A stretch of DNA of 64,000 nt from an uncultured virus (IMG/VR IMGVR_UViG_3300006145_000010) (Duplodnaviria > Heunggongvirae > Uroviricota > Caudoviricetes). Made by a program: the position numbers and the translations under genes. Under the pieces are notes generated by a model. That model made no database searches. It had not been told where the DNA came from and saw only the letters and a list, made by a program, of their open reading frames with translations. Each line of letters starts with the position of its first letter. Within the stretch, counting starts at the first letter, position 1. Positions 4,234 to 61,921 of the stretch are shown here, piece by piece. The stretch lies in the IMG/VR virus record IMGVR_UViG_3300006145_000010. One strand, written 5' to 3'.

Positions 4234-4334
4234 AGTTATTCCGGCATATATTCAGGGGGTATTTTGTCATGGTTTTACTAGGTTTTTTTATGTTTGTTGT
4301 TGATGGATTTACTACGCTGTACTACGTTGCTCCT

Positions 4335-8061: not shown

Positions 8062-8117
8062 GGTGGTTCCTTTTTTGTGTTCTGTACTCATATTTTTTTG
8101 ATGGTTGGTTGTGGTTG

Positions 8118-8327
8118 TTAGGCGGCGGGGCGGTTGCGGCGATCACGCAGGAGAATGAGGCGGCCTATGAAGTCCGCAAAAGTGCGGGCGAGCATTTCCG
8201 GACTTGCACCGGGGTTAGCGGCGGCGTGCATGTCCATGAGGGCCGCGTGTTCCTCCGCAGTAAAGGGGAGATAGACTAGTTGGGTGGTCGTTTGATTCGG
8301 ATTTGTATGAGATATATTACATTCCAT
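8118..8327 (-). CDS. Cro-like small protein 1 (ends NRPAA)
   Basis: Divergent from repressor-like gene 8428-8784. Confidence 0.55.
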   Translation of the reverse strand: MECNISHTNPNQTTTQLVYLPFTAEEHAALMDMHAAANPGASPEMLARTFADFIGRLILLRDRRNRPAA

Positions 8328-8784: not shown

Positions 8785-8839
8785 CGCCGCAGGTGCGCGG
8801 CGTTATTCAGCTTTTTTTGATGGTTGGTTGTGGTTGAGG

Positions 8840-9025
8840 TCAGGCGGCGGGGCGGTTGAGGGTGGTGGTTTTTGATTTTGAATATTGGTCCAGGGCGTAT
8901 GAGATGATTCCGTGGACCAGGTCTTTCACCGGGATATGGATGTGTTCAGCAATGCCTTCCAATGCCTGGAAGTCTTCTTCCTTCAGCCGGATGATGAGGT
9001 TGGTTTGTAATGATGTCGTAGCCAT
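8840..9025 (-). CDS. Cro-like/RHH-like small protein 2 (ends NRPAA)
   Basis: LIIRLKEEDFQALEGIAE RHH-like; divergent from 9135-9488. Confidence 0.6.
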   Translation of the reverse strand: MATTSLQTNLIIRLKEEDFQALEGIAEHIHIPVKDLVHGIISYALDQYSKSKTTTLNRPAA

Positions 9026-11860: not shown

Positions 11861-11936
11861 GTCGCGTTCGTCTAGCGGTCCAGGACTCCCGCCTTTCACG
11901 CGGGCAACACGGGTTCGAGTCCCGTACGCGATGCCA
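11861..11936 (+). tRNA. tRNA-Glu (UUC)
   Basis: Full cloverleaf: acceptor GTCGCGT/ACGCGAT, anticodon stem CCCGC/GCGGG with TTC at 11895-11897, T-loop TTCGAGT, encoded CCA. Confidence 0.95.
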
Positions 11937-18658: not shown

Positions 18659-18675
18659 CAGAACAGTAATAAGTG

Positions 18676-33577: not shown

Positions 33578-33763
33578 ATGCCGGAACGATACCTTTATTT
33601 ACTCGTCATTGAAACTCCCGGACGCAAGCAGGAGATGCACATGCTGCACAGCAGGAAGCAGCGTACAGCCTACAAAGCCCAACACGCGGAATGGCATCTC
33701 AACAGCACCTACGTGGAGTATGACTTGCCGGAACATCTTATTAACCAATACCTGAACAAATGA
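33578..33763 (+). CDS. Hypothetical protein
   Basis: ATGA-coupled to the amidase. Confidence 0.55.
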   Translation: MPERYLYLLVIETPGRKQEMHMLHSRKQRTAYKAQHAEWHLNSTYVEYDLPEHLINQYLNK

Positions 33764-37250: not shown

Positions 37251-38390
37251 TTAAGGAAGAAGTTCCGGTAGGGATTCCGCAGCGGAGCGCAGCTGATCCA
37301 CGGAGGGGCGGATGTACACGCTATGCACGGCGGAAGAGTCATGCCCCACCAGCTCCATGGCCAGCCCCTGCGATACGCCTGATGCCTGCAACAACGTGGC
37401 CGCCGTGGCCCGAATGCTGTGGAAGGACTTGCTGTTCATCCTCCTTCTGCGGCCGCCGGCCGCTCCATGCACCACGCCGATGCCATGGGTGCGCAACAGG
37501 AGGCCGAATTGATAGGACGCGCCATCCCCCAGGGCCAGCAGGGGCGCGTGAAGTAGTTCATCCGCCGGTTCCCCCGCTTCCTTCCAGCGGGCAAGCGCCC
37601 ATTGGTAAAAGCCTTCTCTCATGGGCTGGTCCATCCAGCGCCCCGTTTTGCCCGTGTCAAAGCGCACGATGCGGCGTTCCCAGTCAAACTGATTCCAGTT
37701 GAGGCGCAGAATATCCCCCAGCCGCTGGCCGTAGGTTTCAAACGAGCAGCGTACCGCGGAACTCCACAGGGGCGGGAAATGCTCAATCATGTAGCGGATC
37801 TCGTCGAGTGTGAAGGCTTCCTTGTGCAGCTTTTCCCCGGCACGGTCCGGGGGAATGGAAACGCCGGCGCACGGATTGCGGTCAATTACTTCTGAATCCA
37901 CGGCATCCGCGAATGCCTGGGAAAGAACGGACATATCCTTGTACACAGTCTTTTGCCGCACCAGTTCGCGGCGAGCCGCCACAAAGCCTTTGATGTCCGC
38001 CTTGGTGATCAGGCGAAGGGGGGCGTTCGCCCGCGCCCCCAGATACTCGTAAAAATGCTTGCAGGCGGTTCTGGCATTGTAGGCCGTCTGTTCGGAGACA
38101 AGAGCCGCCTTGCGCCCAACAAATCCGTCACACCAAGTCCGCACGGAAACATTGTTGTGCACCTGGTATTCTTCCGCTTCCGCGCAGGCTATCTGCACGC
38201 CCCGCTGGTAGGCGATACGTTCCGCCAGCTTGGCCGTGATGCGGTCTCCCTCGAACTCGCCGCCATTCACAGGAACTTTCGTGGAACGGCGCTTCATCTT
38301 GCCGTCCGGCCCCTGAAATGTCACCATCCAGTAGGGCGAGGATTTTTCCTTGTTGATGGACAGACGCCCCTTGTAAAAAGGTTTGCTCAT
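37251..38390 (-). CDS. int: Tyrosine integrase (phage B)
   Basis: GQRLGD (R), SFHSIR, VGH and VY motifs; N-terminal SPYW. Confidence 0.9.
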   Translation of the reverse strand: MSKPFYKGRLSINKEKSSPYWMVTFQGPDGKMKRRSTKVPVNGGEFEGDRITAKLAERIAYQRGVQIACAEAEEYQVHNNVSVRTWCDGFVGRKAALVSEQTAYNARTACKHFYEYLGARANAPLRLITKADIKGFVAARRELVRQKTVYKDMSVLSQAFADAVDSEVIDRNPCAGVSIPPDRAGEKLHKEAFTLDEIRYMIEHFPPLWSSAVRCSFETYGQRLGDILRLNWNQFDWERRIVRFDTGKTGRWMDQPMREGFYQWALARWKEAGEPADELLHAPLLALGDGASYQFGLLLRTHGIGVVHGAAGGRRRRMNSKSFHSIRATAATLLQASGVSQGLAMELVGHDSSAVHSVYIRPSVDQLRSAAESLPELLP

Positions 38391-38524: not shown

Positions 38525-38675
38525 TGTTAAGTTTATTTCTATAAATAATTTGCTTCAATTTGTAACACTTCTGTAACGTCTGTATGACAGAGACAAGATG
38601 CCGAATTGGAGATTCTGCAACTGAATTGACACTCGGCAACTTGCAAATGTGCGGTTTCTGTCCCCTGATGGAAGC

Positions 38676-40132: not shown

Positions 40133-40261
40133 TTTTTTTTCCGTCGGTTTGTCCATAGGGCCGTCTCTGCATGGAGGCGGCCCTTTTTGCTGTTCCGGAG
40201 AAGAAACGTTGATTTTCGCCAACTTGCCCCGGTTGAACGCCCTGGGTTATGTTCAGGGGAA

Positions 40262-46578: not shown

Positions 46579-46928
46579 ATGCGTTTGATGCGACCGTGAG
46601 CGCTTATGCGGAGGTGGGCCGGGATTTGTGGACGGATGTGAAGGATTGCGCGTCCCTGGGGCTGGCGTTCGTTTCCCCGGAGGAGGTGTGCCTGGCTCTG
46701 CCCTCCGAGAGGCTGGGTGAGTTGTGTTTTCCTCCTGTGGGCATGCCGGATCTTCCGGAGAGGTGCTTGTTTGTGTGGTGGGCGGCCGGGGAGCCGCGCG
46801 AGCTGGCCCGGCTGGCCCGGCAGTTTTCCCGCAGAGGTTTTACGCATGTGGCCTGGCAGCGGTTTTTGCGCGGGCCGAAGGTGCATGTTTTTTCCATTGA
46901 TCAACTTACCGGTTTTATATCACGATGA
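46575..46928 (+). CDS. Small protein, possibly GNAT-like, in the ejection module
   Basis: LFVWWAAG; overlap-coupled on both sides. Confidence 0.5.
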   Translation: MNAFDATVSAYAEVGRDLWTDVKDCASLGLAFVSPEEVCLALPSERLGELCFPPVGMPDLPERCLFVWWAAGEPRELARLARQFSRRGFTHVAWQRFLRGPKVHVFSIDQLTGFISR

Positions 46929-49282
46929 GCGAGTTTTCTTTATACGGCGGGCCGTCCCTGCAGACGGCCAAGGCTGATCCCGGTGTCGCGGCGCGGGCCG
47001 CCAATGGCGATCAGGGCCAGGTGCTGGGCGCGTCCGTCCAGAAGGCCGAAGAGGCGGTTCAGGGGAGCGCGGAGGCGTTTGCCAGGATTTCCGATTTCGG
47101 GGAGATGCAGCGGCAGGAGGTGGAGCTGCGACGCATCCGGGACGAGTCCGACGCGAAGTTTTCCAGGATGCTGGCTTTCGCGCCGGGCACGAAGGAGAGC
47201 GTTTTTGAGAAGGACGGTTCCATCCGGCAGGGGAAGCTGAAAGATTTGGCTTACGAGTTCGGCCAGAAGATTGACGCGCTGGGTGGCAGTTTTTTCCACC
47301 CGGAGAGCGCCATGAAGGCGGAGGCTGTCAGGGCTTCCGTGAGGTCAAGCCTGCCGGAACGTTATTGGGGGCTGGCTGCCAAACATCAGCTGGGCGTTGC
47401 CAGACAGGCTTTCGATACGAGTTTGAAGCTGGCCGAGGAGAAGCAGGATTGGGGCGGTTACGAGAGGTCTGTTGATGACGCCGTAGCTTCCGGCACGATT
47501 TCCCGTGACGAAGGTGAGCTGCGTTTATTGAGAGGGAGGAAGAAGGCTTCCCGCCATCATTTTGAGAACCTGGCCGCGACTAACCCGGATCTTGCCGCCG
47601 AGATGATTAACCGCGGGGAGCTGGACGGGTATTTTTCCGCCTCCGAACAGGATGAGATGATGCGTTCTTTGCGGCGTCAGGACGACAACAGGCTTACGGA
47701 GGTAGTCGAGCAGACGGCTTCCCGTCCTAAGTCAAAGAACGACAGGCAGGCCGTGACGAATGCTTTGCTGTCCGGTCCCGTCTATCAGGAAGAATTGGGG
47801 TTTCATGCGGTTTATGAGCGCGACGGGGATTACAGCGCCTGCGCTCCGCAGATTGATTCTTTCATTTACCGGGTTGCGGATATGGTGAGGGCTGGAGAAG
47901 AAGGGCCGGATTTGGCGAGCAAGAAGGAAAATGTGATCCTTCTGTGCAAGCGTTACGCGAAGTCAGCCGAGTTCCAGAAGGATGTTTTGAACCGCATGGA
48001 TAAGTGGGCCAAGCGCAAGGAAAAGTACAAGATGTTGAATGTTTCCGAGCGCATGAAGGAGATGGATGGGGCTCCGTTGTACCGTCAGGCGGATTATAAT
48101 AACGTCATTGGCACTCTTGATGCCGAGGCGAAGAATGCCTGGCAACTCTACGCTGATTCCTCCAAAGGGTCCGACACACCCAAAGACAGTGAAGATACAT
48201 GGATCAAGAGGTTCAAGAAGGAGAAGATTGAGAACCTGCAAAAGAATCTTGCCGCCAAGACCGAGATTGCCGTTCGTGATGATTTTGAGGCCTGGTTTGA
48301 TGGAGAGGTGCAGGGGAACGGGAAGGAGCCTTCCTATGTTTTGCAGGAGGATATGCTTCAGACTATTTTAAGAAAAGTAACAGGTCGCAATGATTTAGTT
48401 ATTCCGAGTCGTGGGAGATTGATGGATGAATACCAGCAGACTGCAAGCGAGAAATGGAGAGATAGGGATAGTGAACGGTTTAATGCTGGCCCCAAATTAT
48501 TGAGTGAAGGGGAGAAGCAGACGCTGCGCCGGAAGGATATGTTGCGCAAGCCGTTTACGTTCCCTGCCATGGTTTCCGTAGATACCGTGAATACGAACGC
48601 GCCCGCCGGCATTCTTCTGCCGGAGAGCATGAGGCAGCGGTTTGGCGACGACGTTTCCGGACTGGCCGCCCTGGTTCCTTCTTCCTCTTCTTCCCGCCGC
48701 GGGAAGCCCCTTCCCGTGGTGGGCTACACCAGGGGGAGTTCCCCCCAGCTTACCCTGTCCGGCGCCAGCAAGCTGCGGATGACGTTTTCTTCCAAGATGG
48801 ATACGAATGTGACGATTTCCCCTGCCAGCCCGGAAATGAGGGAGTTTTTCAAGAGAGAATATCCGGGAAGCCAGGATTGGGAGCAGGATGCCGGAGAGTC
48901 CAGGGTGCCTGCCGCCAAGCTGGGGGGGCTGGGACAGTACAGCCAGGCTTTTTATGATGCGGGAAGGAAGTATGGCGTGGATCCGAAGCTGTTGATGGCT
49001 ATTGCCATGCACGAGACCGGCAAGGGAACGAGCGCCGCTTTCCTGCGCAAGAATAACGCCATGGGCATCAGCCCGAATGGAGGGGGACCGCGCACTTTTT
49101 CCTCCGTGGAAGAGAGCATTAATTACGCCGCCCGCCTGTTGAGGAAGCATTATCTGGACCAGGGGTTGACGACGATTGCCGCCATTGGAGGGAAGTACGC
49201 TCCGGCAGGAGCCGGGAATGATCCGCGCGGATTGAATAAGCATTGGGTCAACGGCGTAAGCAAGTATTACAAATCATTTTAA
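46925..49282 (+). CDS. Internal virion protein with C-terminal glucosaminidase/lysozyme-like domain
   Basis: KYGVDPKLLMAIAMHETG..NNAMGI..FSSVEESI..KYAP. Confidence 0.8.
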   Translation: MSEFSLYGGPSLQTAKADPGVAARAANGDQGQVLGASVQKAEEAVQGSAEAFARISDFGEMQRQEVELRRIRDESDAKFSRMLAFAPGTKESVFEKDGSIRQGKLKDLAYEFGQKIDALGGSFFHPESAMKAEAVRASVRSSLPERYWGLAAKHQLGVARQAFDTSLKLAEEKQDWGGYERSVDDAVASGTISRDEGELRLLRGRKKASRHHFENLAATNPDLAAEMINRGELDGYFSASEQDEMMRSLRRQDDNRLTEVVEQTASRPKSKNDRQAVTNALLSGPVYQEELGFHAVYERDGDYSACAPQIDSFIYRVADMVRAGEEGPDLASKKENVILLCKRYAKSAEFQKDVLNRMDKWAKRKEKYKMLNVSERMKEMDGAPLYRQADYNNVIGTLDAEAKNAWQLYADSSKGSDTPKDSEDTWIKRFKKEKIENLQKNLAAKTEIAVRDDFEAWFDGEVQGNGKEPSYVLQEDMLQTILRKVTGRNDLVIPSRGRLMDEYQQTASEKWRDRDSERFNAGPKLLSEGEKQTLRRKDMLRKPFTFPAMVSVDTVNTNAPAGILLPESMRQRFGDDVSGLAALVPSSSSSRRGKPLPVVGYTRGSSPQLTLSGASKLRMTFSSKMDTNVTISPASPEMREFFKREYPGSQDWEQDAGESRVPAAKLGGLGQYSQAFYDAGRKYGVDPKLLMAIAMHETGKGTSAAFLRKNNAMGISPNGGGPRTFSSVEESINYAARLLRKHYLDQGLTTIAAIGGKYAPAGAGNDPRGLNKHWVNGVSKYYKSF

Positions 49283-49311: not shown

Positions 49312-52300
49312 ATGAACGACAATTTTTCCTTTGACGGGGCCGACGCTGCGGATATGCCTCTGGATCTTTCTTTTTCCTCCCTGCCGCTGCCGGAGGGCGA
49401 GGCTGCCGCCGGATTTCACCTGCCGGAGATGGAACCGGGAACAGGACAGGAGCAAGCAGCAGCCGACATTAATCTTTTGAATGGAAGCGACGTGATGGAA
49501 ACCACTCCTTCCCCTTTTCCTGCTCCGGAAGATCCTTCCGAAACGGAGTTCCGTCCGCAGCTGACGGATCCTGAATCCCTGCATGACCAGGGGGCTATGA
49601 TGATGTACGGCGCAGCAGAGCGAGAAGAGAGGCGCAGAAAGGATAAGCAGGCCCGGCTGATGGATGTGCTGCGGGCCGGGGCCATGGATGGAGAGGGCAG
49701 AAAGAAAGCTGCGGAACTCTGGGGCCAAGATGCTCTGAACCGCCTTGATCTGGCTAGCGAACATGACCGAGCTTATATGCTTGGGAATCGCCTGATGGAG
49801 ACCATCGGTGACGGAGATAGAGATGTAGGCCGCCAGATTTACAAGAACGCCAACAATTTGTGGGGAACAGATGTTGTTACGGCAGACCAGATTTGGAAGG
49901 ATTTTCAAGGGAGGCATCAGAAGACGCTGGACGCCTATAATGAAAATCTGAAGAGGGTTCAGACTGAACAGGAGGAGATTTCCCGCCGGATAGTGGATTG
50001 CGTAGCCGGGAAGGAAGGCAGCTGGGACGCGTGTCCTGCCGATTTGCTGAAGTATGCCGAGAGTCCGCAGAAGGCTGCCGATTCCATCATGAGGGCGCGG
50101 CGGGCGTATGCTTTTGCCGAGAGGCGCGGGTTTGAGGATGTCTGGCGCTCCGACGCGCTGGACATGGCCGATCTGCTGACAGTGAATGTCAACGGGAATG
50201 AGGTGCTGGACCAGCAGGCGTTGATGTTGCTGATGACCGCGATTGACCGGAAGGTTCAGGAGAGCCAGACGGATTCCGCTGCTTTCTGGCGCAATTTGTA
50301 TAGAAGTTTTGCCGACACGGCGCGCGGCGCGGAGAGCCTGGGCGTGAAGGCGGTTCAGGCGGTGAGGGGCATTCCCGGCATGAGCGGAATGGAAGAGTGG
50401 TATTCCAATAATATTGCTCCCCTGCAGGGGGTGAAGGATACGTTTGACGGACAAAGGCAGCTCTTCGACCGCTACGAGCAAAGACGCGAAGCGCTGAATA
50501 CGATGCAGGATGTGATGCACGAGTTCGGACAGCGGATGCGGGGCACGAGCCCTGATGCGTCCTGGTACGTCAAGGCGATTAACGGAGCCGGGAATATCAC
50601 CGGGCAGAGCCTTTCCTACATGGCTCCCGGCGGCTGGGCCCTGGCGCTGGCCGGGGATATGGGGCACGCCGGGAATGCCGCCTCCCGCAACGGGGATTCC
50701 CTGGTGGACGTGACGATCAACGGGCTGCGGAATACGGTGGAGGAAAAGGGGTTTGGGGTGTTTTCCGTGTTCGGGCGCATGGGGGCCATCAACAAGCTGA
50801 TGACCAGGACGGGAACCGGCGCCCTGGCGAGACTGGCCGCGAAGGTGCCGGGGCGCACGTTTTTTGCCGGGACGAGAACCGGCAAGATGCTTTCCACCCC
50901 GGCGTTTGCCTACGTGGAAGAGATGGCGGCGGAACCTCTGGCCGGGGAGTTGTTCGAGTGGACGGCCCGGAAGTTGTCCGGGATGACGGGAATGGAGGTG
51001 AAGCCGAAGGATTTCGAGGTGGTGGGCCCCGTGCTTCAGGCGATGGGGGATGTGGAGCAGTCCGGCGGATGCGCGTTGTTTGTGGCGGCCATGGCTGCCG
51101 GCCACGCTCCGAGGATGAAGCAGGAAGTGGCGGCGTTCGTGACGGATGCGCAGCGGGCCCAGCTGGCCGGATATACGAAGAAGCATGCCGAAGAGATGGC
51201 GTCTTTTTCCACGGCGGAGCACAAGGCTGCGCTGGCCCAGAAGTATTTCGAGACTGATGTATTGAAGGATCCAGAAGGAGCCGCCGAACGGGCGCGGAAG
51301 GCCGGCGCCGAGCTGGCGGACCGGCAGGAGGCCCGGCTGTACCAGATGTCCGGCGCTCTGGACAAGGTGCTGGAGAAGGCCAACATTGGCCGTATCCGCA
51401 AGCTGGAAGGAACGGACAGGTACGAGGTGAGCCTGCGGGAGGGCGCTGTAGTGAACGGCGTGAAGATGGAGGAAGACAGGAGCGTGGAGATGAACGAGGA
51501 GCAGACGGACGCCCTGGTTCAGGTAGTGCTGCAGGGGGCTTATTTGAATGGCGTCCGCGTGATGCAGGATGCCGTGCTGGGGAATGCCGCGATTTCGGAA
51601 GCCGGGAAGATGGATTTTATTGAGACGCTGGATATGTTGTCCGAGGAAGCGCCTGCGGAGTACCGGAAGGCGGCCGCCGAAACCGGAGGGATGACCGTCC
51701 CGGGGTTGATGGATGTGGCCGCGCGAGCCCAGGCGAGGATTGACGCGATTGTCCGGGAAGAGGGCGTGTCCGTCCAGGAAGCCAGAAGCAGGACGGATGC
51801 CGAAGTGATGGGGAAGGTTCAGCTTGGTTCCATTGCCGATTTGGCGGCGGCTTTTGAGAGGCGTCTTGATCATGCAGTGCGTTCCGGAGAGATTACGAGG
51901 GGGAGATCCGAGGAGATCAGGAACGGCACGGCGGCGGCCAGCTTCGCCCACCGGTTTACGATGGCGACCGATCCTGGGAGTTCCCTGCTGCTTTACGCAG
52001 GAGGCCATGCCACGACGGCCAACGTGATGGAGGATGTGCAGGAGTCCGCCCTGGTTCATTACATGAACCTGACCGGGAAGGATTGGCAGGATTTGTGGGA
52101 GCATTTGCAGGCGGCGGACGCCGTGTTGGGAAGGTACGGCGTGAGTCTGGGGACGTATGAGGGCCCGGCGCATGATGCCAGGGACGTGGTGGAAAGTTTT
52201 TCCAACCTGTCCCTGTCTTCCTCCCTGGCGGATATTGAGAGCCTGCCCGTGCCACAGTGGGTGAAGGACACCGCGGAGTTCGCCCTGAAGAATCTGGAGG

Positions 52301-55300
52301 ATTCCGCCCGCATCATACGCATGGGCGAGCAATGGAACGAGTTTGCCGCGACGGACGAGGGGAAGAAGTTTATGGAAGAGCACGGAGGCCTGGCAGACGC
52401 CCTGCAGGCCGTGGGCGTGAGTACGGAGAGCGTTTTCCGCCAGGCGCGGATGGATGCCGCGCAGAAACTGGATGTGGAGATGGTGCACGCGGACCTTGCT
52501 TCCCGCAGGGCTCCGGGGGATGCCACGATGACGCTGGGCGAGCTGGAGGCACTGGAAGAGTCCATGGCGCGGATGGATGCCGCGGAGGATGTGGAAGAGA
52601 CCGCGGAAGAGGAGGATGAGACTGATCCCGTGACCGGCATTGCCGGGAATTCGGCATCCCCCGCTCCGCTGGTGGAGGATGCCGGCGGCTCCCTGGAGGG
52701 GGTGGGGGAAGAGGCCGAACACGATGAAGAGGCCGGCGCGGAGTTCCGCGATCACGCGTTTGTGCGGGTGGCGCCGGATTGCGTGTTTGCCCAGGTGCGG
52801 GTGGATTCCCTGGCCCTGGCGCCGGATGTGGAGCAGTTCAAGCAGGGAGATCATAATGAACGCGGAGCCGTGAAGGGGCGCGAGCTTCAGGGATGGTTCC
52901 GGGAAGACGCCCAGCCCATTTCCGTGTGGCGGCGCAGGGATGGAGCCCTGCATGTGATTACCGGACGCCACCGGTTTGATTTGGCCGTGCGCGACGGGGT
53001 GGAGTTTATTCCGGCTTACGTGTATGAAGAAGATGATGCGCATGACGCCACTTGGGCGAAGATGCACGACGTCGGGCAGAATATGCTGGACGGTCAGGCG
53101 TCCGCGCTGGAGGTGGCTTTTTTTGTCCGGAATTCCAATATGGGCCGGGACGAGATGGAGGCGCAGGGGTATTTGCGCCCCGGTTCCGCCAATGTGATGG
53201 GCTGGGATATTGCCACCCTGGCCGGGGATGAGGTGTTTACCCGCCTGAAGAACGGGGTGATTACGGATAACGAGGCGTGGAAGGTATGCCGCCTGTCTTC
53301 AACGGAGGCGGGACAGATGCTTGCCCTGCAGCTGCGCGAGAAGGGGAAGCCGTGGGATTACGTGGCGGCCTATGTGAAGGAGGCGGACCGGGTGGCTGCG
53401 GAGAAGTCCCGGGAGGGAGAGGCGTTTGATTTGTTCGGCAACGATACGTCCTGGCAGGAGGATTGCGAGAAGGTGGCCCGCTTTGCGGCCCGGGGGATTT
53501 CCCTGATTGCCGAACGCCTGTCCCTTCTGAAGAAGTCCAGAGGCATCAGCCGGCGGAAGGATTTGGCGGGCAGGATGGGCATCCGCCTGGAGACGGACGC
53601 AGATTTGAATGCGGCCATTCATGATTTGGAAAGAGCCAAGGGGGCATGGCAGTCCCATGACCCGGCGCTGCACCTTCATGACCGCGCCCTTGCCTGGGAC
53701 GGCACGAGTGAAGTGAATCCGTTCGAGCGTGTGCCCGTTTCCGGGGCGACGTTTTCCGTGGTTGCCATGGATAGTTCCGGAACTGTCCTGGCTCCGGAGA
53801 CGTTCGTCACCCGGGAAGACGGAAGTCCTGACTGGTTTGTGATTCCGCGCCGCAAGAGGCAGCCAGCCATGCCGGTGCGGCTGCTGGTGGGTTCCGATGT
53901 CGGGGAGCATCGCGGCTATGGACTGACCCATATCCTGGCTTCCCGCGGGTTTTCCTTCTGGAAGGACCGTTCCCCGGAACGCTATATCAGTTCCATTCTG
54001 GCGAATGTGAGCGAGCTTTACGAGGTGGCGCCCGGGCGTGAGCTGCTGGTTAAGGGAAGGCAGCCTTCTTCATGGATGCTGCTGCAATTGGACCGGAAGG
54101 ACGGGTTTTATTCCATTGTCTCGGCTTATCCAGTGCGGCAGGGCAAGAAGCCGCTGGGGAAGAAGCTCCCCCTTGCAGAGCGACAACCTGCAAACGCGAA
54201 TAGCGGCACCGCGCGCCTAGGTCCAGGATCGGCAAGCAAGGCCGCTCTGCCGTCCCAATCCGCTGGCGGGGGAGATGGTTTTTCCTTACCACAAGGGGCG
54301 CATGTTGTCAACGTGAATGAAGTGGAATGCCGGTTTGACGACGGGGCTATTGTTCCGGCGACGTTTTCCCTATCTCTGGAAAAAGAGGCAATCAAGAAGG
54401 AAGCTGTGGCTGCGGGCACGTTCATGAAGGCCCCGAACGGGAAGGAAACGAATCTGACGGAAGACCAGTGGCTTGCCGTGCGCACGGCGGCGTTTAAGAA
54501 TTGGTTTGGCGATTGGGAGAAGGATCCGCAGAATGCTTCCAAGGTGGTGGACGAGAACGGGGAGCCGAGGGTGGTGTATCATGGGACATACGGTGATTTC
54601 ACGGTGTTTGACAAGGCCAAGATTGGATCTGCTACTGATTATGGTATATGGGGTAGAGGATTTTATTTTACCAATATGGAGAATACTCCGTACGGGAACA
54701 AGAAGCTGGCTCTGTTTCTGAATATCAGGAATCCGTTTATTTTTAATGATTACAAGTCTGCTGAAGAGATAGGCGATTATTTAAATATTTGGGATGGGAA
54801 TTTTCATGAAGATGACAGGTTTGGAATATTCCGGCCGTATGCGACAGGAGCGGCCCAGATAGCCGATAGTGCTCAAGAAAGAGGACATGATGGACTCATT
54901 GCTGTACTGGGTAAATGGACGGAGTACATTGCCTTTGAGCCGAATCAGATCAAGTCCTCCACGAACAACCGGGGGACGTTTGATCCGAAGAATCCGGACA
55001 TTACGTTTTCCATTGTTTCGGCACAGGAACAGGGCTTGTTCCGGGACGGCCATTTTGAGGCGGGCAACGCTGTGATTACGGAACCGGGGGTGACGTTCTC
55101 CATTACTGCCCTGCATGCTTCCCCTCACAGTTTTCGCAAGTTTGATACGGCGTTCATGGGCAAGGGGGAAGGAGCGCAGGCGTATGGCTGGGGACTTTAT
55201 TTTGCGGAAAATCCGGAGGTGAACCGGAGTTATATGAACCAGTTCGCGCAGGATAAGACGACATGGAAGTTCCGGGAGGTGGAGACTGGCGTTATAGAAG

Positions 55301-58300
55301 TGATGCAACGATCCCTGGTAAATAGTTTTTTGCCGAAGGATGCCCTGCCGGAGGCCAAGGAGGACGCGTCAGATATCGCCTGGTCTGTTCTTGGCGATTT
55401 GGTTGATGCCTCCAAAGGAAGCATGACTGTTTCAGACATCGCCAGAGAGGTGATGGAGGAGATTGAAATCAACAGGAAACACGCGGAGGAGTATCCCCAG
55501 GAGCGGGAGAAAATGGTCCAGCTGGAAGGCTTTCTACTTTCTCTGCTTGATCATCTGGACGAGATAGAGGTCAGGACGGGCATGCCTTCCAATTACCGCG
55601 TGGAGCTGAATGTGGAGGATTATTTGGACTTCATGGAAGGAGGGGAGCTGCTGTTTTGGGATAAAGGGTACGGCTCATCTACAACATCCAGAATAGGAGA
55701 TTGGCTTCTGGATGAGGGCAAGGAAGAAGCGTATTCTTTGTTCAACGACAAGGATCCGGAAAATGGGTATTGGATGGGGGGCAAGATTTACCGCTCGTTG
55801 GAGGATGCCTTGGGAAGCCCCAGAGAGGCGAGCGAGTTTCTGTTAAGGCATGGAGTGAGGGGCATCAGGTACGCAGACGGTTTTTCCCGCTGGAAGGCGG
55901 AGGAGAAGCAGACGTATAATTACGTGATTTTTGACGGCAACGATATTAAGATTACGGCGTTTGCGGACGAGTCCACCGGGGGAGCGTGGGCGGATTATGA
56001 GGATCCGACGGCGAGTTTCTCTCTTGCCACGAGAGAAAGTGTCTGGGTGACGCTGGAGCGGGAGGCGCAGAAGAACCGTTTGGAGGTGCTGCGCAGCCAG
56101 ACGGCAAAAGCGTTGGAGACATGGCGCCGGGTTTGCGCGGCCAACGATGTGAAGCAGGGAGACGGCGCGGAGGCGTTCGGAAGGGTCATGGCCGTGGTGG
56201 CTTCCATTTACAAGACGCTGCCGGAGGGGTACAGGTTTGGCCTTTACCCTTACATGAGAGCTGCCGAGAATCTTGCCACCCGTCTGGAGGACGGTCAGGC
56301 ATGGCTTTCCGATGAGCTGAAGAAGGAGACGCTGATGGACGATACCAGCGAGCGCATGGATGCCGTGATTGACAAGCTGCTGGCCCGCACGCTGGAACAG
56401 GCAGACCGATATGCCGTCGACCAGATGCGGGCGGAGATGGTTGCCCGCATCAAGGCCGTGCAGCCGACGAAGAAGGCCAGCGGGAAGTTTAACAAGGGCA
56501 AGTTGAGCGCGGAGGATTACAGGCATTTGCACGGGATAGTCGCCATGATGAATACGGACCAGGAGGCGAAGGAGAAGCGAATGCTGGAGCTGGAGGGCGT
56601 GCTTTCCAGCAACCAGTCCACCGAAGAGGAACGGGGTGCGGCCGAGCTGGAATTGAAGGATTGGCACACGTTCGGATATCTGGCCGGGATGGGACTGGAG
56701 CAGACGCGCGCCTGCGCGCGCGCCCTTGCCCTGTTTATCACGACGGGACGGACGGCCTGGTCCACCCGGTTGGACGAGGAGAGGCGCCGGACGAAGTTCA
56801 AGGCCGAGAAGATTGTGGAAGGGCTTGGGCAGGCCACTCCCCAGGGAGGACGTGACGCGGAAGAGGATGCGAAGGCGTCTACGAGAACGAAGGCGGCCAA
56901 GTACCTGAAGTACGGTTTGCAGTCTTATTCCCAGCTGTTGAATGGATGGAAGAAGATTCCCGCCCTGCGCGGTCTGGCGCATGCCGAGGTTACTGCGATT
57001 GCCGAGGCGAATGTGGCGTTGAGGAATATGAAGCACGCCCGGGACCGGGAGGTGACGGCCCTGGTTAAGCGGTGTTTTGGCGTTCAGCGCACCAAAGATG
57101 TGGCAAGGGTTCTTTCCGATTTCAAGAAGACAGGGGATTCCGGCGTAGTGCTGAATCCGCTGGTGAAGGTGGAGCGCACCGTGAGGATCGCCGAGGCCCG
57201 CGAGTGGGTGGGGTTGTCTTTTGAGGAGAGGGAGGAACGACGCAAGGCAATCAGGAAGGAGTACAATGACCGGGGGCTTTCCGACGATAAGGCGTCCGTG
57301 CCGGAAGCGCTTATTCCGGAGATGCGCCGGCAGCTTGCCGAGCTGGATGAATTGGTGAAGGCCGGAGACGGACGGGCCAGAAGGAGGAAGAATATTACGG
57401 CGAAGGAGGAAGTGGTGCGCCCGGGCAGGAAGGGCGAGACGTTGAAGGTTTCCCGCGCCCAGGCGATGTATGCCATTTTGCTTTACGAGCAGGCCGAGTA
57501 CGTGGAGACGATGCGGAATGAAGGCATTGGAGAAGCGGAGGTTGCCCGCCTGCGCGAGTTTGTGGGCGCCGAAGGGCTGGCGTTCGGCTACGGCCTGCGG
57601 GAGCTGATGAACCGGCAGGGAAAGCTGCTGGCCCGTGTGTATGAGGAGCGTGAGGGGGTTCCCTTCCCCGCGGTGGAGAATTATTTCCGGGCCGTGTTCC
57701 GGGCGGACCACAAGCTTGATACGAAGGCGTCTTTCGGGGAACAGACGAATGCCGTGGCCGGCGGGGCGAAGTACGGGATGCTGATTCCCAGGCGGAAGCA
57801 CAATTTGCACCTGGCCTGGAATATGGATTGCGAGGCCGTGTTCCAGGCGGCGAGCGCCGAGGTGGAGAATTATATTTGCACGGCGGATATTACTGCCCGC
57901 TGGCGCGGCATTCTGGCGGACAAGGAGGCGGCAGCGTCCCTGAAGGAGCACATGGGGCGCCACGGGATTGATTCGCTGCGGCACTGGCTGGATGTGATCG
58001 ACGGGGCCGGAGTGATGGAGGGGGGCGCCCTGCTGGCCGGAGCCCAGGCGACAAGCCGCTTCCAGAGCGCCAAGGCGGTGGCCCTGCTGGCCTGGAACGT
58101 GCTGACGATGCTCAAGCAGACCAGCGGCCTGATGCACGGGATGTTTGCCGGGGAGGTTGGCATGGGGAGTTTCCTGCTGCACCTGGGGCAGACGATGTCC
58201 ATGACCGGACGCATGGGGGTGTTTGAGGTGATGAAGACGGAGGCTTTCCGGGCGAGGACCAATGACGCTCAGGCGGAGCTGGTGAGCCAGCTGATGGGGT

Positions 58301-59139
58301 ATGCTTCCGATCAGAATTACACCGGAGCGATCAGGTTTTCCATGGCCGGCATGAGGGCTATTGAGAAGATGGACGTGTGGAGCAATGCCGTGTCCATGGC
58401 CGCCCTGTATAACGCGAAGTGGGCCGAGCTGGAAGAGGCAGGAAAAAGGACCGGCGTCCCGATGACGGATGATGAGATGCACGCCCTGTGCATGCAGAGC
58501 GTGACCCGGGCGCTGGAGCTGGTGGCCCAGCCGCTGACGCAGAGCCAGAAGAGCATGCTGGGGGCTTCCACGGGCCTGTTTGCGAAGATGGCCTGTTTTA
58601 TGAGTTCCGAGGTGTTGAATAAGGTGGGGATGATCGTTTCTCATGTGAGCTCCGGGAATTGGGGGCAGGCTCTTGCTTTATATGGAATGATGTCCGTTGC
58701 CGAACAGACGGTGATTGCCCTGTGGCACGCCCTGCTGGATGACGAGGACGAGTGGGAGAAGAACGGCGGATGGTTCGGCGCCATGCTGGGGGCTCCTGTT
58801 GCCATGATTGGCGGGGTGCCGATGCTGGGTGCGGCGGTGGAGTTTGGCTACAAGCAGGCGACTGGACAGCGTATTTACGCAGGCACCGCGTCCGGAGTGA
58901 TTGATTATTCCGCGATTTACCGGGCGGCCAAAAATACGTGGAAAGCCGTCACCGGGGAGAAGGAGATGACGTTTGCCGATTGGGCGGAATTGATTCTGCT
59001 GGATGCCAAGGCGGCCGCTTACGTGGCCGGAGCGGGCGCCGGGAGCCGCAGCAAGGCGGCTGATTCCGTGGCGTCCTGGCTCTTGTCCGTGGCTGGGGTG
59101 GCGAATTTGTCCAAGCCTGGGTTTAAGCTGGCGGAGTGA
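49312..59139 (+). CDS. Giant internal virion / large polyvalent protein (ParB-like, BECR nuclease-like, two ART-like domains)
   Basis: 3275 aa; PISVW..VITGRHR; GYGLTHI..IVSAY; VVYHGT..GFYFT..PNQIKS; LHASPH..GEGAQAYGWGLYF..NYVIFD. Confidence 0.8.
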   Translation: MNDNFSFDGADAADMPLDLSFSSLPLPEGEAAAGFHLPEMEPGTGQEQAAADINLLNGSDVMETTPSPFPAPEDPSETEFRPQLTDPESLHDQGAMMMYGAAEREERRRKDKQARLMDVLRAGAMDGEGRKKAAELWGQDALNRLDLASEHDRAYMLGNRLMETIGDGDRDVGRQIYKNANNLWGTDVVTADQIWKDFQGRHQKTLDAYNENLKRVQTEQEEISRRIVDCVAGKEGSWDACPADLLKYAESPQKAADSIMRARRAYAFAERRGFEDVWRSDALDMADLLTVNVNGNEVLDQQALMLLMTAIDRKVQESQTDSAAFWRNLYRSFADTARGAESLGVKAVQAVRGIPGMSGMEEWYSNNIAPLQGVKDTFDGQRQLFDRYEQRREALNTMQDVMHEFGQRMRGTSPDASWYVKAINGAGNITGQSLSYMAPGGWALALAGDMGHAGNAASRNGDSLVDVTINGLRNTVEEKGFGVFSVFGRMGAINKLMTRTGTGALARLAAKVPGRTFFAGTRTGKMLSTPAFAYVEEMAAEPLAGELFEWTARKLSGMTGMEVKPKDFEVVGPVLQAMGDVEQSGGCALFVAAMAAGHAPRMKQEVAAFVTDAQRAQLAGYTKKHAEEMASFSTAEHKAALAQKYFETDVLKDPEGAAERARKAGAELADRQEARLYQMSGALDKVLEKANIGRIRKLEGTDRYEVSLREGAVVNGVKMEEDRSVEMNEEQTDALVQVVLQGAYLNGVRVMQDAVLGNAAISEAGKMDFIETLDMLSEEAPAEYRKAAAETGGMTVPGLMDVAARAQARIDAIVREEGVSVQEARSRTDAEVMGKVQLGSIADLAAAFERRLDHAVRSGEITRGRSEEIRNGTAAASFAHRFTMATDPGSSLLLYAGGHATTANVMEDVQESALVHYMNLTGKDWQDLWEHLQAADAVLGRYGVSLGTYEGPAHDARDVVESFSNLSLSSSLADIESLPVPQWVKDTAEFALKNLEDSARIIRMGEQWNEFAATDEGKKFMEEHGGLADALQAVGVSTESVFRQARMDAAQKLDVEMVHADLASRRAPGDATMTLGELEALEESMARMDAAEDVEETAEEEDETDPVTGIAGNSASPAPLVEDAGGSLEGVGEEAEHDEEAGAEFRDHAFVRVAPDCVFAQVRVDSLALAPDVEQFKQGDHNERGAVKGRELQGWFREDAQPISVWRRRDGALHVITGRHRFDLAVRDGVEFIPAYVYEEDDAHDATWAKMHDVGQNMLDGQASALEVAFFVRNSNMGRDEMEAQGYLRPGSANVMGWDIATLAGDEVFTRLKNGVITDNEAWKVCRLSSTEAGQMLALQLREKGKPWDYVAAYVKEADRVAAEKSREGEAFDLFGNDTSWQEDCEKVARFAARGISLIAERLSLLKKSRGISRRKDLAGRMGIRLETDADLNAAIHDLERAKGAWQSHDPALHLHDRALAWDGTSEVNPFERVPVSGATFSVVAMDSSGTVLAPETFVTREDGSPDWFVIPRRKRQPAMPVRLLVGSDVGEHRGYGLTHILASRGFSFWKDRSPERYISSILANVSELYEVAPGRELLVKGRQPSSWMLLQLDRKDGFYSIVSAYPVRQGKKPLGKKLPLAERQPANANSGTARLGPGSASKAALPSQSAGGGDGFSLPQGAHVVNVNEVECRFDDGAIVPATFSLSLEKEAIKKEAVAAGTFMKAPNGKETNLTEDQWLAVRTAAFKNWFGDWEKDPQNASKVVDENGEPRVVYHGTYGDFTVFDKAKIGSATDYGIWGRGFYFTNMENTPYGNKKLALFLNIRNPFIFNDYKSAEEIGDYLNIWDGNFHEDDRFGIFRPYATGAAQIADSAQERGHDGLIAVLGKWTEYIAFEPNQIKSSTNNRGTFDPKNPDITFSIVSAQEQGLFRDGHFEAGNAVITEPGVTFSITALHASPHSFRKFDTAFMGKGEGAQAYGWGLYFAENPEVNRSYMNQFAQDKTTWKFREVETGVIEVMQRSLVNSFLPKDALPEAKEDASDIAWSVLGDLVDASKGSMTVSDIAREVMEEIEINRKHAEEYPQEREKMVQLEGFLLSLLDHLDEIEVRTGMPSNYRVELNVEDYLDFMEGGELLFWDKGYGSSTTSRIGDWLLDEGKEEAYSLFNDKDPENGYWMGGKIYRSLEDALGSPREASEFLLRHGVRGIRYADGFSRWKAEEKQTYNYVIFDGNDIKITAFADESTGGAWADYEDPTASFSLATRESVWVTLEREAQKNRLEVLRSQTAKALETWRRVCAANDVKQGDGAEAFGRVMAVVASIYKTLPEGYRFGLYPYMRAAENLATRLEDGQAWLSDELKKETLMDDTSERMDAVIDKLLARTLEQADRYAVDQMRAEMVARIKAVQPTKKASGKFNKGKLSAEDYRHLHGIVAMMNTDQEAKEKRMLELEGVLSSNQSTEEERGAAELELKDWHTFGYLAGMGLEQTRACARALALFITTGRTAWSTRLDEERRRTKFKAEKIVEGLGQATPQGGRDAEEDAKASTRTKAAKYLKYGLQSYSQLLNGWKKIPALRGLAHAEVTAIAEANVALRNMKHARDREVTALVKRCFGVQRTKDVARVLSDFKKTGDSGVVLNPLVKVERTVRIAEAREWVGLSFEEREERRKAIRKEYNDRGLSDDKASVPEALIPEMRRQLAELDELVKAGDGRARRRKNITAKEEVVRPGRKGETLKVSRAQAMYAILLYEQAEYVETMRNEGIGEAEVARLREFVGAEGLAFGYGLRELMNRQGKLLARVYEEREGVPFPAVENYFRAVFRADHKLDTKASFGEQTNAVAGGAKYGMLIPRRKHNLHLAWNMDCEAVFQAASAEVENYICTADITARWRGILADKEAAASLKEHMGRHGIDSLRHWLDVIDGAGVMEGGALLAGAQATSRFQSAKAVALLAWNVLTMLKQTSGLMHGMFAGEVGMGSFLLHLGQTMSMTGRMGVFEVMKTEAFRARTNDAQAELVSQLMGYASDQNYTGAIRFSMAGMRAIEKMDVWSNAVSMAALYNAKWAELEEAGKRTGVPMTDDEMHALCMQSVTRALELVAQPLTQSQKSMLGASTGLFAKMACFMSSEVLNKVGMIVSHVSSGNWGQALALYGMMSVAEQTVIALWHALLDDEDEWEKNGGWFGAMLGAPVAMIGGVPMLGAAVEFGYKQATGQRIYAGTASGVIDYSAIYRAAKNTWKAVTGEKEMTFADWAELILLDAKAAAYVAGAGAGSRSKAADSVASWLLSVAGVANLSKPGFKLAE
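49743..49907 (+). repeat. 165-bp direct repeat, copy 1 (in the giant gene)
   Basis: 163/165 identical to 59776-59940. Confidence 0.95.
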
Positions 59140-59194
59140 TTCCAAAATATTGCAAGCTTGTGTTTCATTTTGTGCGCCATTATGGTGTGGACTC

Positions 59195-60076
59195 ATGAAA
59201 GGCTTGCTGATTGCTGTTTGCGTTCTTCTGGGGGTGGCGCTGTTGCCGATGCCTTACGGGTATTATATGTTCCTGCGTTTAGCTGTCTGTGCTTATGCTG
59301 TCTTTGTATTTGCACAGGAACAGAAGAAGGGAGTTTGTTTTGGAAGCGTGTCAGCCGCCGCTATTGCCCTGCTTTACAATCCCATTTTCCGGGTGCATTT
59401 GGAGAAAGAGGTCTGGATGTGGGTGAATGCCGGAACCATTGTTCTTTTTTTGTCCATTATGGCGCCATGGTCCATTATCTGGAAGAAGGTGAAGGGTCCG
59501 GTTAAAGTCCTGTTTGTGCTTCTGGTAATTGCTTCCGCCGCTTTTGCTGTTGTCAAATATAGAGAGAATGAAAGGCTGGAGAAGGTGGCCACCCATGAGC
59601 GAATGCAACAGGAGCAGGCGAGAGCAAAGCAGGAAGAGAAGATGGAATGTTACAGAGCAAGGAAAGGATCGAATACCAAGGAGATGGTCTTGATGGATCT
59701 TGTGCTGTTTGCTACCGGAGATGAAGGGGCGAAAGAGAGATTCCGCGTACGTTGGGGCGAAGATGCTGTTTCCCTCCTTGATCTGGCTAGCGAACATGAC
59801 CGGGCTTATATGCTTGGGAATCGCCTGATGGAGACCATCGGTGACGGAGATAGAGATGTAGGCCGCCAGATTTACAAGAACGCCAACAATTTGTGGGGAA
59901 CAGATGTTGTTACGGCAGATCAGATTTGGAAGGATTTTCAGGAGAGGAATGCATGCGTTGTGGAGGTAGAAAAGAATATGAACGCGATCAACGCAGAAGA
60001 CTGGAATAGTAATGGAGCCGAAGTTTTTGCTAAGAGCTTTTTCAAGAAGCAGATACAACTCAAGATTCCGAAGTAG
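59195..60076 (+). CDS. DUF6804-like membrane protein fused to a copy of an ejection-protein segment
   Basis: LLPMPYGYYMFLR..LLYNPIF DUF6804-like TM region; residues 195-249 are identical to residues 145-199 of the giant protein. Confidence 0.8.
   Translation: MKGLLIAVCVLLGVALLPMPYGYYMFLRLAVCAYAVFVFAQEQKKGVCFGSVSAAAIALLYNPIFRVHLEKEVWMWVNAGTIVLFLSIMAPWSIIWKKVKGPVKVLFVLLVIASAAFAVVKYRENERLEKVATHERMQQEQARAKQEEKMECYRARKGSNTKEMVLMDLVLFATGDEGAKERFRVRWGEDAVSLLDLASEHDRAYMLGNRLMETIGDGDRDVGRQIYKNANNLWGTDVVTADQIWKDFQERNACVVEVEKNMNAINAEDWNSNGAEVFAKSFFKKQIQLKIPK
59776..59940 (+). repeat. 165-bp direct repeat, copy 2
   Basis: Mismatches only at 59803 and 59920. Confidence 0.95.
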
Positions 60077-60169: not shown

Positions 60170-60979
60170 ATGGACATTAAAGAAGCTGTTTCAATTTCTT
60201 TCAAGGCATTAGGTAAGAAAGAAGCCCACGTAAACGATATAGCGGAGCATATTGTTCAGCATATCGCTGAATTTCAAGGGGCATCCGTTGAGGACATGAA
60301 GAAGAAGGTTAATTCTTTTTTGGCAGCCAATGTCAAAAGCAAGACACCGGTTTATGCAAAGGTTATCAATCCAAAGACGAAGAGATCCAGAAAGGGGCTT
60401 TATAAGATCAAGCCGGAGCCAAAAGGTACTCAAGTCATCAGAACAGAACCTGACCGTAAAAAGAAACCAAACCCCGGAGGAGATAAGCAAGTACAACTCC
60501 CTCTTGTCTTTTCCAATACTTCCTGCGACAAGATCTTTTGCGGTAAAGGTGGTGAATTTGCTGTAGTGAGTGAATTATTATTCCGTGGCTATAATGCCAG
60601 CATTATGTCTGCTGATGAAGGAGTTGATATTACAGCGTCAAAAGGAGACAAATTTTTCTTTATTCAGGTTAAAACTTCTTTTTTCAAAGAAAACAAGCTT
60701 TCTGTTTTCATTAAACCGAATAATTTTATCAACAGCTCTACCGCTAATATATTTTATGTGATTGTGTTCCGCTATTCATGCGATGGGCATATGACTAATC
60801 GTTTTCTCATTTTGCAAAATGGGGATATTAACAGAATGCAACACGGAGGATATATTAGCACATCAGACGCCGGAATGACAATCAAGGTCAAGCAAGACAA
60901 TAGAGGATTGTTTATCTATAACCGAGATAAACAAGAAGACGCAACCTATTACCTAGATAATTTTGATCTCATTAGGTAG
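60170..60979 (+). CDS. wHTH plus PD-(D/E)xK endonuclease-like protein
   Basis: GKGGEFAVVSELL..DEGVDI..FIQVKT; promoter TTGACT(60134)-17-TATAAG; AT-rich. Confidence 0.7.
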   Translation: MDIKEAVSISFKALGKKEAHVNDIAEHIVQHIAEFQGASVEDMKKKVNSFLAANVKSKTPVYAKVINPKTKRSRKGLYKIKPEPKGTQVIRTEPDRKKKPNPGGDKQVQLPLVFSNTSCDKIFCGKGGEFAVVSELLFRGYNASIMSADEGVDITASKGDKFFFIQVKTSFFKENKLSVFIKPNNFINSSTANIFYVIVFRYSCDGHMTNRFLILQNGDINRMQHGGYISTSDAGMTIKVKQDNRGLFIYNRDKQEDATYYLDNFDLIR

Positions 60980-61159: not shown

Positions 61160-61921
61160 TCAAGCTTTCTTCCAGCGTTCCAGCGTTTCCACATAGATGC
61201 CGGAGATTTTACCGCCGTCCATGGGTTCGATGTCTCCGAAGTCGGGATTGAGTGGATGTAATACGTATTCCATTTTTCCGGTTTCCGGGTTTTTCCTGCG
61301 AACCAGTTTTTTGAGCGTCACCCCTCGTTCATCGTGGTATTGAACAATGGTTCCTAACTTGGGGATGGGAGGGATGGTGTATTTTTTCATGATGACCACG
61401 GAGCCGTCCGGGATGGAGGGTTCCATAGAGTGACCGTTGACGCGTAGCAGGTATTCCCCTTTTTCCAGTTCGCGGTATAACCAGATGTCCTGCGGGATGG
61501 TGTCTCCATCCGCCAGGTTGCCGGCGGCAATGTTGCCGATGATTCGTCCCTGAGCCTCCAAGGGAGGGGCTGTGAATGTTTCTACCGGGGTAAACTTCTT
61601 GCGGGCTGCCTCTTTTTCTTTGGCGGCATTTTGAATGGCGGTATTGACGAATTCCAGGAAGGTTTCTTTGTGGGCTTTAGCGGCCTCACAGATAATGTCC
61701 CATTCTTCATCTGTGAAGTCGATGACGATGCGGGGAGAGGATTCGGCTTCTCCGTTCATAAGACGCTGAATAACAAGGATAGCCTTTGCGGGAATATTGA
61801 TGGATGACGAAAGCCAATTATCTACCTGACGCTTGGAAACTCCACATTGGTTAGCGAGCCATTCTCTGTCTCTACCAATAACCTTGAGCCATTTTTTTAC
61901 GTCTTCTTTTGTTGTCGTCAT
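61160..61921 (-). CDS. CI-like repressor with S24 peptidase domain
   Basis: N-terminal HTH, IAAG cleavage site, VNGHSMEP, TLKKL. Confidence 0.9.
   Translation of the reverse strand: MTTTKEDVKKWLKVIGRDREWLANQCGVSKRQVDNWLSSSINIPAKAILVIQRLMNGEAESSPRIVIDFTDEEWDIICEAAKAHKETFLEFVNTAIQNAAKEKEAARKKFTPVETFTAPPLEAQGRIIGNIAAGNLADGDTIPQDIWLYRELEKGEYLLRVNGHSMEPSIPDGSVVIMKKYTIPPIPKLGTIVQYHDERGVTLKKLVRRKNPETGKMEYVLHPLNPDFGDIEPMDGGKISGIYVETLERWKKA

Follow-up and report, generated by a model that had tools for sequence, protein, structure and literature searches.

In the short-tailed temperate phage P22, the gene sieA is located just after the genes for the ejection proteins. According to the relevant part of PMC10883804, SieA is an inner-membrane prophage protein that blocks DNA injection, with escape mutations in the ejection proteins gp16 and gp20, and further envelope-anchored exclusion proteins, Ltp of TP-J34, Sie2009 of Tuc2009 and gp15 of HK97, are aimed at tape-measure proteins. 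With respect to the delivered proteins, phage polyvalent proteins are characteristically recognized by the ART-PolyVal domain and are proposed to be packaged and injected together with the DNA (Iyer et al., 2017, PMC5512222, in the part concerned). Here, a locus of an uncultured virus of the Caudoviricetes (IMG/VR record IMGVR_UViG_3300006145_000010) is described in which, on a stretch of 64,000 nucleotides (the window, that is, the whole stretch of DNA analysed), the gene for a very large polyvalent protein (the giant) is followed by the gene for a DUF6804 membrane protein (M) that carries a near-identical copy of a segment of the giant. An earlier note on this DNA, made from the sequence alone, had read M as a candidate decoy for superinfection exclusion. 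Comparison with related phages provides solid support for concerted evolution of the shared segment (the core) and for recurrence of the architecture, and mimicry of the giant is put forward, tentatively, as the function that would fit M best.

An in-frame repeat in a virion-module gene and a membrane protein gene

Realignment of positions 49700-49960 with 59733-59993 confirms the repeat described in the earlier note: the homogenised tract in the giant gene (49743..49907) and its counterpart in the M gene (59776..59940), both on the plus strand, are identical at 163/165 nucleotides, and the two mismatches, CGA/CGG and GAC/GAT, are both synonymous. The codon boundaries are at 49744 and 59777, one base inside these coordinates, and both copies are in frame, encoding residues 145-199 of the 3275-residue giant and residues 195-249 of the 293-residue M. 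Spaced by 10,033 bp, the two copies constitute the sole long direct repeat in the window (family D1, 260 nucleotides at 85% identity, spacing 10033), the remaining repeat families measuring 41-47 nucleotides each. The weaker protein similarity that had been seen upstream of the core (LMDVLRAG versus LMDLVLFA) is real as well and amounts to 67/131 identical positions at the nucleotide level.

The two-copy arrangement is also present in an IMG/VR record in which 98% of the sampled words of the window recur, in several independent IMG/VR and ENA contigs and, with 10,384 letters between the copies, on a single 28-kb contig from another run. Misassembly, for which the earlier note had allowed, is therefore ruled out as the origin of the repeat. 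A template/variable repeat pair of a diversity-generating retroelement is ruled out likewise, as the mismatches are A/G and C/T and hence not adenine-specific; among the open reading frames (ORFs) examined, none matched a reverse transcriptase in Pfam or PHROGs. With the bare existence of a repeat pair of about 165 nucleotides as the only point in its favour, an explanation by assembly artefact or retroelement has practically no chance of being correct.

Concerted evolution of the core

Concerted evolution is recognized by an identity within genomes far above that between genomes and by sharp borders that vary between lineages. Ten pairs of core copies located on the same contig were compared (the window, L003, L005, L006, L032, L037, L038, G002, OLWI and OGXX), several of which are near-duplicates, so that the set represents three main lineages and minor variants. 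Within a genome the core is identical at 161-165/165 positions in all 10 pairs, versus 101-108/165 or 143-144/165 (65-87% identity) between genomes, which answers in the affirmative the question raised by the earlier note whether the copies are closer within than between genomes.

The sequences next to the core follow another pattern. Between the window and G002 the core is identical at 143-144/165 positions, the upstream flank in M at 96/100 and the upstream flank in the giant gene at 91/100; the corresponding values are 106-108/165, 99/100 and 45/100 for the window and OGXX, and 101-103/165, 96/100 and 46/100 for G002 and OGXX. The flanks of the two genes within one genome agree at only 38-48/100 positions. 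As the M flank is conserved at 96-99/100 across phages and the core is as in the resident giant, M is near-constant except for its core. Three core alleles are found within M genes that are otherwise 96-99% identical next to the core, and the tract ends differ among the window, L037, G002 and OGXX, which together indicate at least two separate conversion events. Identity within genomes far above that between genomes, unrelated flanks and independent events are the signs by which concerted evolution is known, and from these comparisons the core is kept near-identical by repeated gene conversion in every genome with both copies.

Synonymous divergence (dS) between the window and G002 is 0.75 for the M copy and 0.93 for the giant copy of the core, compared with 0.20-0.38 for the flanks in the giant gene and 0.06-0.21 for the remaining half of the domain and the tail of M, and the ratio of nonsynonymous to synonymous divergence (dN/dS) of the core is about 0.04. 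As its dS exceeds that of the neighbouring parts of both genes, the core behaves like a separately inherited cassette. Relative to the flanks of either gene, dS in the core is two to four times as high; older alleles, exchange of cassettes or mutagenic repair could account for it.

The membrane protein M and its giant-like domain

The gene for M (59195..60076, plus strand, start codon ATG at 59195) encodes a match to DUF6804 (Pfam PF20619, 70.4 bits, cut-off 27) at residues 4-89, and the giant (49312..59139, plus strand) matches ART-PolyVal (Pfam PF18760, 88.6 bits, cut-off 31.2) and the PHROGs phrog_30335 and phrog_21376, so that the Pfam matches bear out both gene calls of the earlier note, the DUF6804 membrane protein and the giant of the virion module. 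An AlphaFold2 model of M, built from a 19-row alignment with a mean predicted local distance difference test score (pLDDT) of 72, displays a four-helix DUF6804 anchor (residues 4-89), a fifth transmembrane helix that continues into a long stalk helix (residues 101-154) and an all-helical C-terminal domain of about 125 residues (approximately 160-287) with a pLDDT of about 90. In total, five hydrophobic helices are predicted, the membrane part of the model being of low confidence. The start MKGLLIA is kept in all M homologues. In one of these, P0010 (232 residues, two members, on a contig of 7.5 kb), the reading frame is lost within the core, as by a frameshift or a sequencing error.

The earlier note had described an exact copy of 55 residues with weaker similarity upstream. 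While the core itself is confirmed, the relationship is wider: residues 157-265 of M align with residues 69-178 of P0019, a distant giant of 3682 residues, at 34% identity (E 5e-15), and since this alignment includes the stretch after the core, the homology is not restricted to the 55 residues. In the window, the giant-like region of M (59645..59989, plus strand, residues 151-265) corresponds to residues 101-215 of the giant (49612..49956, plus strand; 64.8% identity over 105 residues by tblastn). Judged by these alignments, the entire C-terminal domain of M and the N-terminal domain of the giant are paralogues. A profile search of the domain against 1.84 billion representatives returned nine matches, all from this phage group; of these, the seven that were inspected comprise giants, M-like proteins and fragments of either, the weak match P0021 being left out. 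With a dN/dS of 0.07-0.19 for the anchor as well as the tail and of 0.04 for the core, and with a pLDDT of about 90, the giant-like domain of M is real and constrained.

No match to M was obtained with tblastn in 50,697 GenBank phage records, none by a scan of genome contigs with the domain alignment and no usable match for the C-terminal domain in the ESM Atlas. Foldseek returned nothing at E <= 0.001 for the model in PDB and BFVD, and the VIA wide fold search gave only generic helical matches (Z <= 7.2) over residues 1-155 that barely cover the C-terminal domain. PADLOC, NCBIfam and PHROGs hold no functional name for M, and the N-terminal domain of the giant matches no Pfam family.

The topology of M was derived from the five helices of the model and from loop charges (MK at the N-terminus, QEQKKG, WKKVKG) by the positive-inside rule, which would place the N-terminus inside and the C-terminal domain outside, that is, in the periplasm. 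The same reasoning puts the C-terminus inside in a variant of the protein with a zinc ribbon, as it has four helices followed by an Arg/Lys-rich stretch, and outside in the M-like P0018, which has KRRR before the last helix.

The giant consists of an acidic low-complexity N-terminus, the helical domain at residues ~105-205 and ART-PolyVal at residues 1747-1890, with one strongly hydrophobic segment by hydropathy (residues 3158-3176) and a weak ParB-like PHROG match at residues 1201-1274; no second Pfam domain at threshold and no PDB sequence match beyond ART-PolyVal were found. It is located downstream of, and on the same strand as, genes for portal, capsid, tail, terminase, tail and glucosaminidase proteins. 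A very large protein with an ART-PolyVal domain encoded among virion and packaging genes has the characteristics of the polyvalent proteins, and the giant would accordingly, by gene position and family, be packaged and ejected. In G003 (L029), two blocks that cover most of the giant gene are 97-99% identical in nucleotides to the gene of the window, whereas the N-terminal ~190 residues are unrelated and joined near a W-DF motif; the DUF6804 protein of G003 is a short form, and G005 is similar. This replacement on a near-identical giant argues that the N-terminus of the giant is a swappable module. The C-termini of the giants of OGXX and the window are only about 26% identical.

Variation in the slot behind the giant and recurrence on other anchors

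Four forms of the slot after the giant were encountered in a survey that leaves out the sequences downstream of the giants L062-L064, L075 and L077: a DUF6804-only protein of 95 residues (L013-L017), a DUF6804 protein of 230-248 residues with a zinc ribbon (L009-L012 and L026), M with 293-295 residues, and no such gene, its place being taken by a hairpin and a low-GC (guanine plus cytosine) gene in reverse orientation (L021, L054 and L055). The zinc-ribbon variant displays no similarity to the N-terminus of its own giant. In the near-complete proviruses with domain-bearing giants (G112-G116), the giant copy is the only one in 5/5, and DUF6804 was detected in 0/5 by a family search that, as positive control, matches G001, G002 and G003. 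The absence of M from these proviruses and the varied slot show M to be accessory.

The giant-like domain follows three kinds of anchors, namely DUF6804 with the fifth helix, a single transmembrane helix (P0016) and an unrelated four-helix anchor without Pfam family (P0018 and L101). L101 carries another allele family of the domain (PEARKK...DVW), again with sharp borders. The occurrence on different anchors shows that capture of the N-terminal domain of the giant by a membrane protein gene happened more than once. The membrane copy of L101 is identical to the resident giant at 183/213 nucleotides and to three other giants at 178-183/213; in L101/G108 (L110 and L112) it has a 45-nucleotide insertion relative to the giant.

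Neutral paralogy, that is, an old partial duplication of the 5' end of the giant gene behind a DUF6804 moron with homology-driven conversion that proceeds without selection while the phage replicates, would explain part of these observations, and the function of M, whatever DUF6804 does, would then be unrelated to the giant. Conversion between direct repeats is mechanistically expected, the slot also accommodates the DUF6804-only and zinc-ribbon forms, and the membrane copy of G108 does not track the resident giant. On the other hand, purifying selection (dN/dS 0.07-0.19) acts on the giant-like domain beyond the converted tract, the domain recurs on three unrelated anchors, identical 165-nucleotide direct repeats are costly as they put the 10-kb giant gene at risk of loss, and conversion between alleles of 65% identity on an M backbone of 99% identity is hard to fix without selection. 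Neutral paralogy is therefore considered an unlikely explanation.

Fusion ORFs and loss of the giant gene

The earlier note had also proposed that recombination between the repeats leaves a short fusion. ORFs that join the N-terminus of the giant, the core and the tail of M in frame are indeed present on four metagenome contigs of 1.3-30.9 kb and in both allele lineages, namely on L043 (30.9 kb, coverage 3.6x) with allele A and on L053 (1.5 kb), L056 (1.3 kb) and L057 (7.0 kb) with allele B, and in two protein clusters, P0011 (one member) and P0012 (nine members from three contigs). These ORFs match the products expected from recombination between the repeats. Skipping of the repeat-body-repeat loop by the assembler fits them as well, and the contigs may represent either real deletions or such loop-skipping; reads of 150 nucleotides could not span the repeat, and the contigs L004, L018 and L050 end inside it.

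Reads over the deletion junction had been suggested as a check by the earlier note. When reads of four runs were placed on a fusion contig, X5 showed the intact form and X9 all four arms with the repeat at approximately double depth, with no fused form in either; X14 gave partial pieces only and from X21 no raw read was placed. The first 130 positions of L057 match, in the opposite orientation, window 37264-37393, which is located 10 kb further upstream; this points to a rearrangement or to a chimeric contig.

It has nevertheless to be considered that the repeats act as a recombination switch, whereby deletion removes the giant gene, creates a soluble fusion protein and establishes a subpopulation of altered or defective prophages with a role of its own. 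The in-frame ORFs on four contigs of both allele lineages, together with P0011 and P0012, are what such a switch would leave behind. Against it, a repeat-body-repeat loop is the classic site of an assembler skip and the three contigs mentioned break inside the repeat, the SPAdes fusion contigs have a coverage of only about 3.6x, none of the four runs placed on the fusion contig displayed the fused form, and the fusion clusters have 10 members versus 184 in the six clusters of full-length M. A dedicated switch is thus regarded as very improbable.

A proposed tethered mimic of the giant

As the comparison of lineages indicates, the core copy of M stays matched to the allele of the resident giant, even though the repeat causes instability. 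The function that fits these observations best is, on our assessment, superinfection exclusion, with M acting at the inner membrane as a mimic or by dominant-negative interference, a reading that is held tentatively and with somewhat more doubt than confidence. It draws on the accessory nature of M, its location where the late operon adjoins the immunity region, the constrained and matched copy of the domain, its probable periplasmic exposure, and the recurrence of the domain on three anchors. The base composition of M (GC content 0.48, versus 0.60 for the giant) and the AT-rich spacer of 660-770 bp that precedes it in relatives are counted in favour of this reading as well. The fifth transmembrane helix would place the giant-like domain of M in the periplasm on a coiled stalk, where it could meet the N-terminal domain of the giant ejected by an incoming sister phage, or the partner of that domain. 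As a tethered mimic or dominant-negative subunit, M would then block DNA delivery and thereby exclude the superinfecting phage. Conversion with the resident giant gene would keep the specificity of the mimic matched to the type of the phage itself, and the recombinational loss of the 10-kb giant gene with formation of a short in-frame fusion would be a side effect of the direct repeat.

A more specific version of exclusion by M goes further. The core, more diverged between lineages than either flank, would be an exchangeable specificity cassette, and sister phages would escape by swapping the N-terminal module of their giant, as in the G003-type giant. That M is in this sense a self-updating and allele-specific exclusion protein, a periplasmic tethered copy of the N-terminal domain of the phage's own injected giant that is kept matched by conversion, is possible, yet doubtful.

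M may alternatively have a role in the phage's own cycle, in that M produced late docks or sequesters the giant or its partner at the membrane or times their release. The shared domain would then bind a common partner or itself, for example to restrain an ADP-ribosylating giant before packaging or to provide a coupling to lysis. M is encoded on the same strand as the giant, only 55 bp downstream (spacer at 59140..59194, plus strand), with no consensus promoter or terminator called in this spacer, and a matched core is as compatible with a homotypic or shared-partner contact as with mimicry. However, M is dispensable: it is missing from all five near-complete relatives that possess this kind of giant, and in L021 and L055 its position is occupied by a hairpin and a gene in reverse orientation. 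A domain that faces the periplasm, as is suggested for M, could moreover not meet a cytoplasmic giant during assembly. Finally, relatives separate M from the giant: in G002 and OGXX an AT-rich spacer of 660-770 bp (GC 0.39-0.40) precedes M, in which inverted repeats are visible that the consensus scan did not call as terminators. A role in the phage's own cycle thus appears rather improbable.

Several points weigh against superinfection exclusion as the function of M. Packaging and ejection of the giant are deduced from gene position and family only, and the topology of M relies on the positive-inside rule and on a model with a pLDDT of about 50 in its transmembrane part. With no promoter or terminator called in the 55 bp behind the giant, M may be no more than a late gene. 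Once homology is present, gene conversion can proceed without any selection, and the pointers to its direction disagree: divergence of the flanks favours transfer from the giant to M, whereas GC at third codon positions points the other way, being 0.45-0.55 in the core of most giants and thus nearer to the flanks in M than to those in the giant gene (0.6-0.79). The G108 copy, which is no closer to the resident giant than to others, argues that matching is not universal. M has no family link to a known exclusion or defence protein in PADLOC, PHROGs, NCBIfam and Pfam, resources with which the comparison was made in place of the SieA sequences themselves, and no fold match.

Genomic context and probable host

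The window carries two prophage-like gene sets in tandem. The long-tailed set (4269-34302), which is located directly upstream of the short-tailed set, comprises an integrase at 4269, a tRNA-Glu at 11861-11936, a large terminase at 13310, a portal at 17099, a protease at 18673, a tape measure at 24401 and an endolysin at 33760. The short-tailed set comprises a portal-like gene at 34537, a capsid at 38649, a tail protein at 40187, a terminase-like gene at 43648, a tail protein at 45258 and a 785-residue glucosaminidase protein at 46925. Both sets are also contained in the nearest IMG/VR record (79.5 kb), which may accordingly combine two separate elements. The right half of the window is a podovirus-like temperate prophage.

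The 785-residue protein (46925..49282, plus strand) has a C-terminal glucosaminidase (peptidoglycan hydrolase) domain (PF01832, 40.9 bits) with PHROG endolysin and tail-lysozyme matches and is, on these matches, likely a virion-borne or ejected cell-wall hydrolase. It is followed by the giant, M, a low-GC (0.38) moron-like ORF (60170..60979, plus strand) with a weak PHROG match only (phrog_5018), and a CI-like repressor on the other strand (61160..61921, minus strand) with an S24 peptidase domain (Pfam PF00717; PHROG phrog_4, transcriptional repressor). M is thus situated between the late operon and the repressor, which marks the adjoining immunity region. The low-GC ORF is absent from many relatives, including all four fusion contigs, and looks like a separate moron; by eye, a sigma-70-like sequence, TTGACT-17-TATAAG, is seen just upstream of it.

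The host is probably Akkermansia, as judged from sequence matches and sample origin: the sole species-genome match of the terminase is in an Akkermansia metagenome-assembled genome (43% identity), capsid relatives of 25-39% identity are present in 15/101 genomes of the family of this assembled genome, and the metagenome contigs all derive from gut samples. With respect to the remaining window, T-rich/G-rich direct repeats of 47 nucleotides are located 719 bp apart at 8093-8139 and 8812-8858, and the GC skew is positive in all 2-kb bins of 1-64000, even over the minus-strand genes (1-11 kb).

Comparison with known systems

SieA and M are both encoded by prophages of short-tailed temperate phages, M would, like SieA, probably be located in the inner membrane, and the position of sieA after the ejection-protein genes resembles that of M after the giant. 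M differs in that it has no match to a SieA-like family in Pfam, PHROGs and PADLOC, and SieA differs in that the relevant part of PMC10883804 reports neither a copy of the target held by SieA nor gene conversion with the target gene. Ltp, Sie2009 and gp15 are, as proposed for M, envelope-anchored prophage proteins that stop genome entry via a conduit-forming protein. Unlike M, they belong to long-tailed phages and are not paralogues of their targets, and no relation to M in sequence or fold was found.

Like the giant, the polyvalent proteins possess ART-PolyVal, are encoded in the virion module and are thought to be packaged and injected, while the word 'transmembrane' does not occur in the text of PMC5512222, and the N-terminal domain of the giant is without a Pfam family. 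A full-text literature search found no paper on DUF6804. Among titles and abstract openings, neither a membrane-anchored paralogue of the N-terminus of a polyvalent protein nor an exclusion protein made as a copy of its target, or matched to it by gene conversion, was found. In animals, Fv1, Fv4 and enJSRV are virus-derived decoy or dominant-negative restriction factors, by which a resident copy of a viral particle component hinders incoming relatives. The concept is the same as that proposed for M, but these factors derive from eukaryotic endogenous retroviruses and act by unrelated mechanisms, so that the parallel is an analogy only.

If the proposed function of M holds true, M would be the first known example of an exclusion protein derived from part of its own target, and the locus the first case in which gene conversion keeps an exclusion protein matched to that target, tying the specificity of immunity to self. 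A function would be suggested for the N-terminal domain of the polyvalent giant, and a handle would be provided on the exit of such giants from the virion in hardly studied phages of a gut commensal, probably Akkermansia. Irrespective of function, the locus offers a clear natural case of concerted evolution within a phage genome, with a measurable cost, as the repeat permits deletion of the giant gene. As in known cases of concerted evolution, identity is far higher within than between genomes and the tract borders are sharp and lineage-specific. Unlike the usual cases, the tract is located in the middle of a domain of a virion protein and a membrane protein that are otherwise unrelated in sequence, and its divergence between lineages (dS 0.75-0.93) exceeds that of the flanks between which it is embedded (0.06-0.38).

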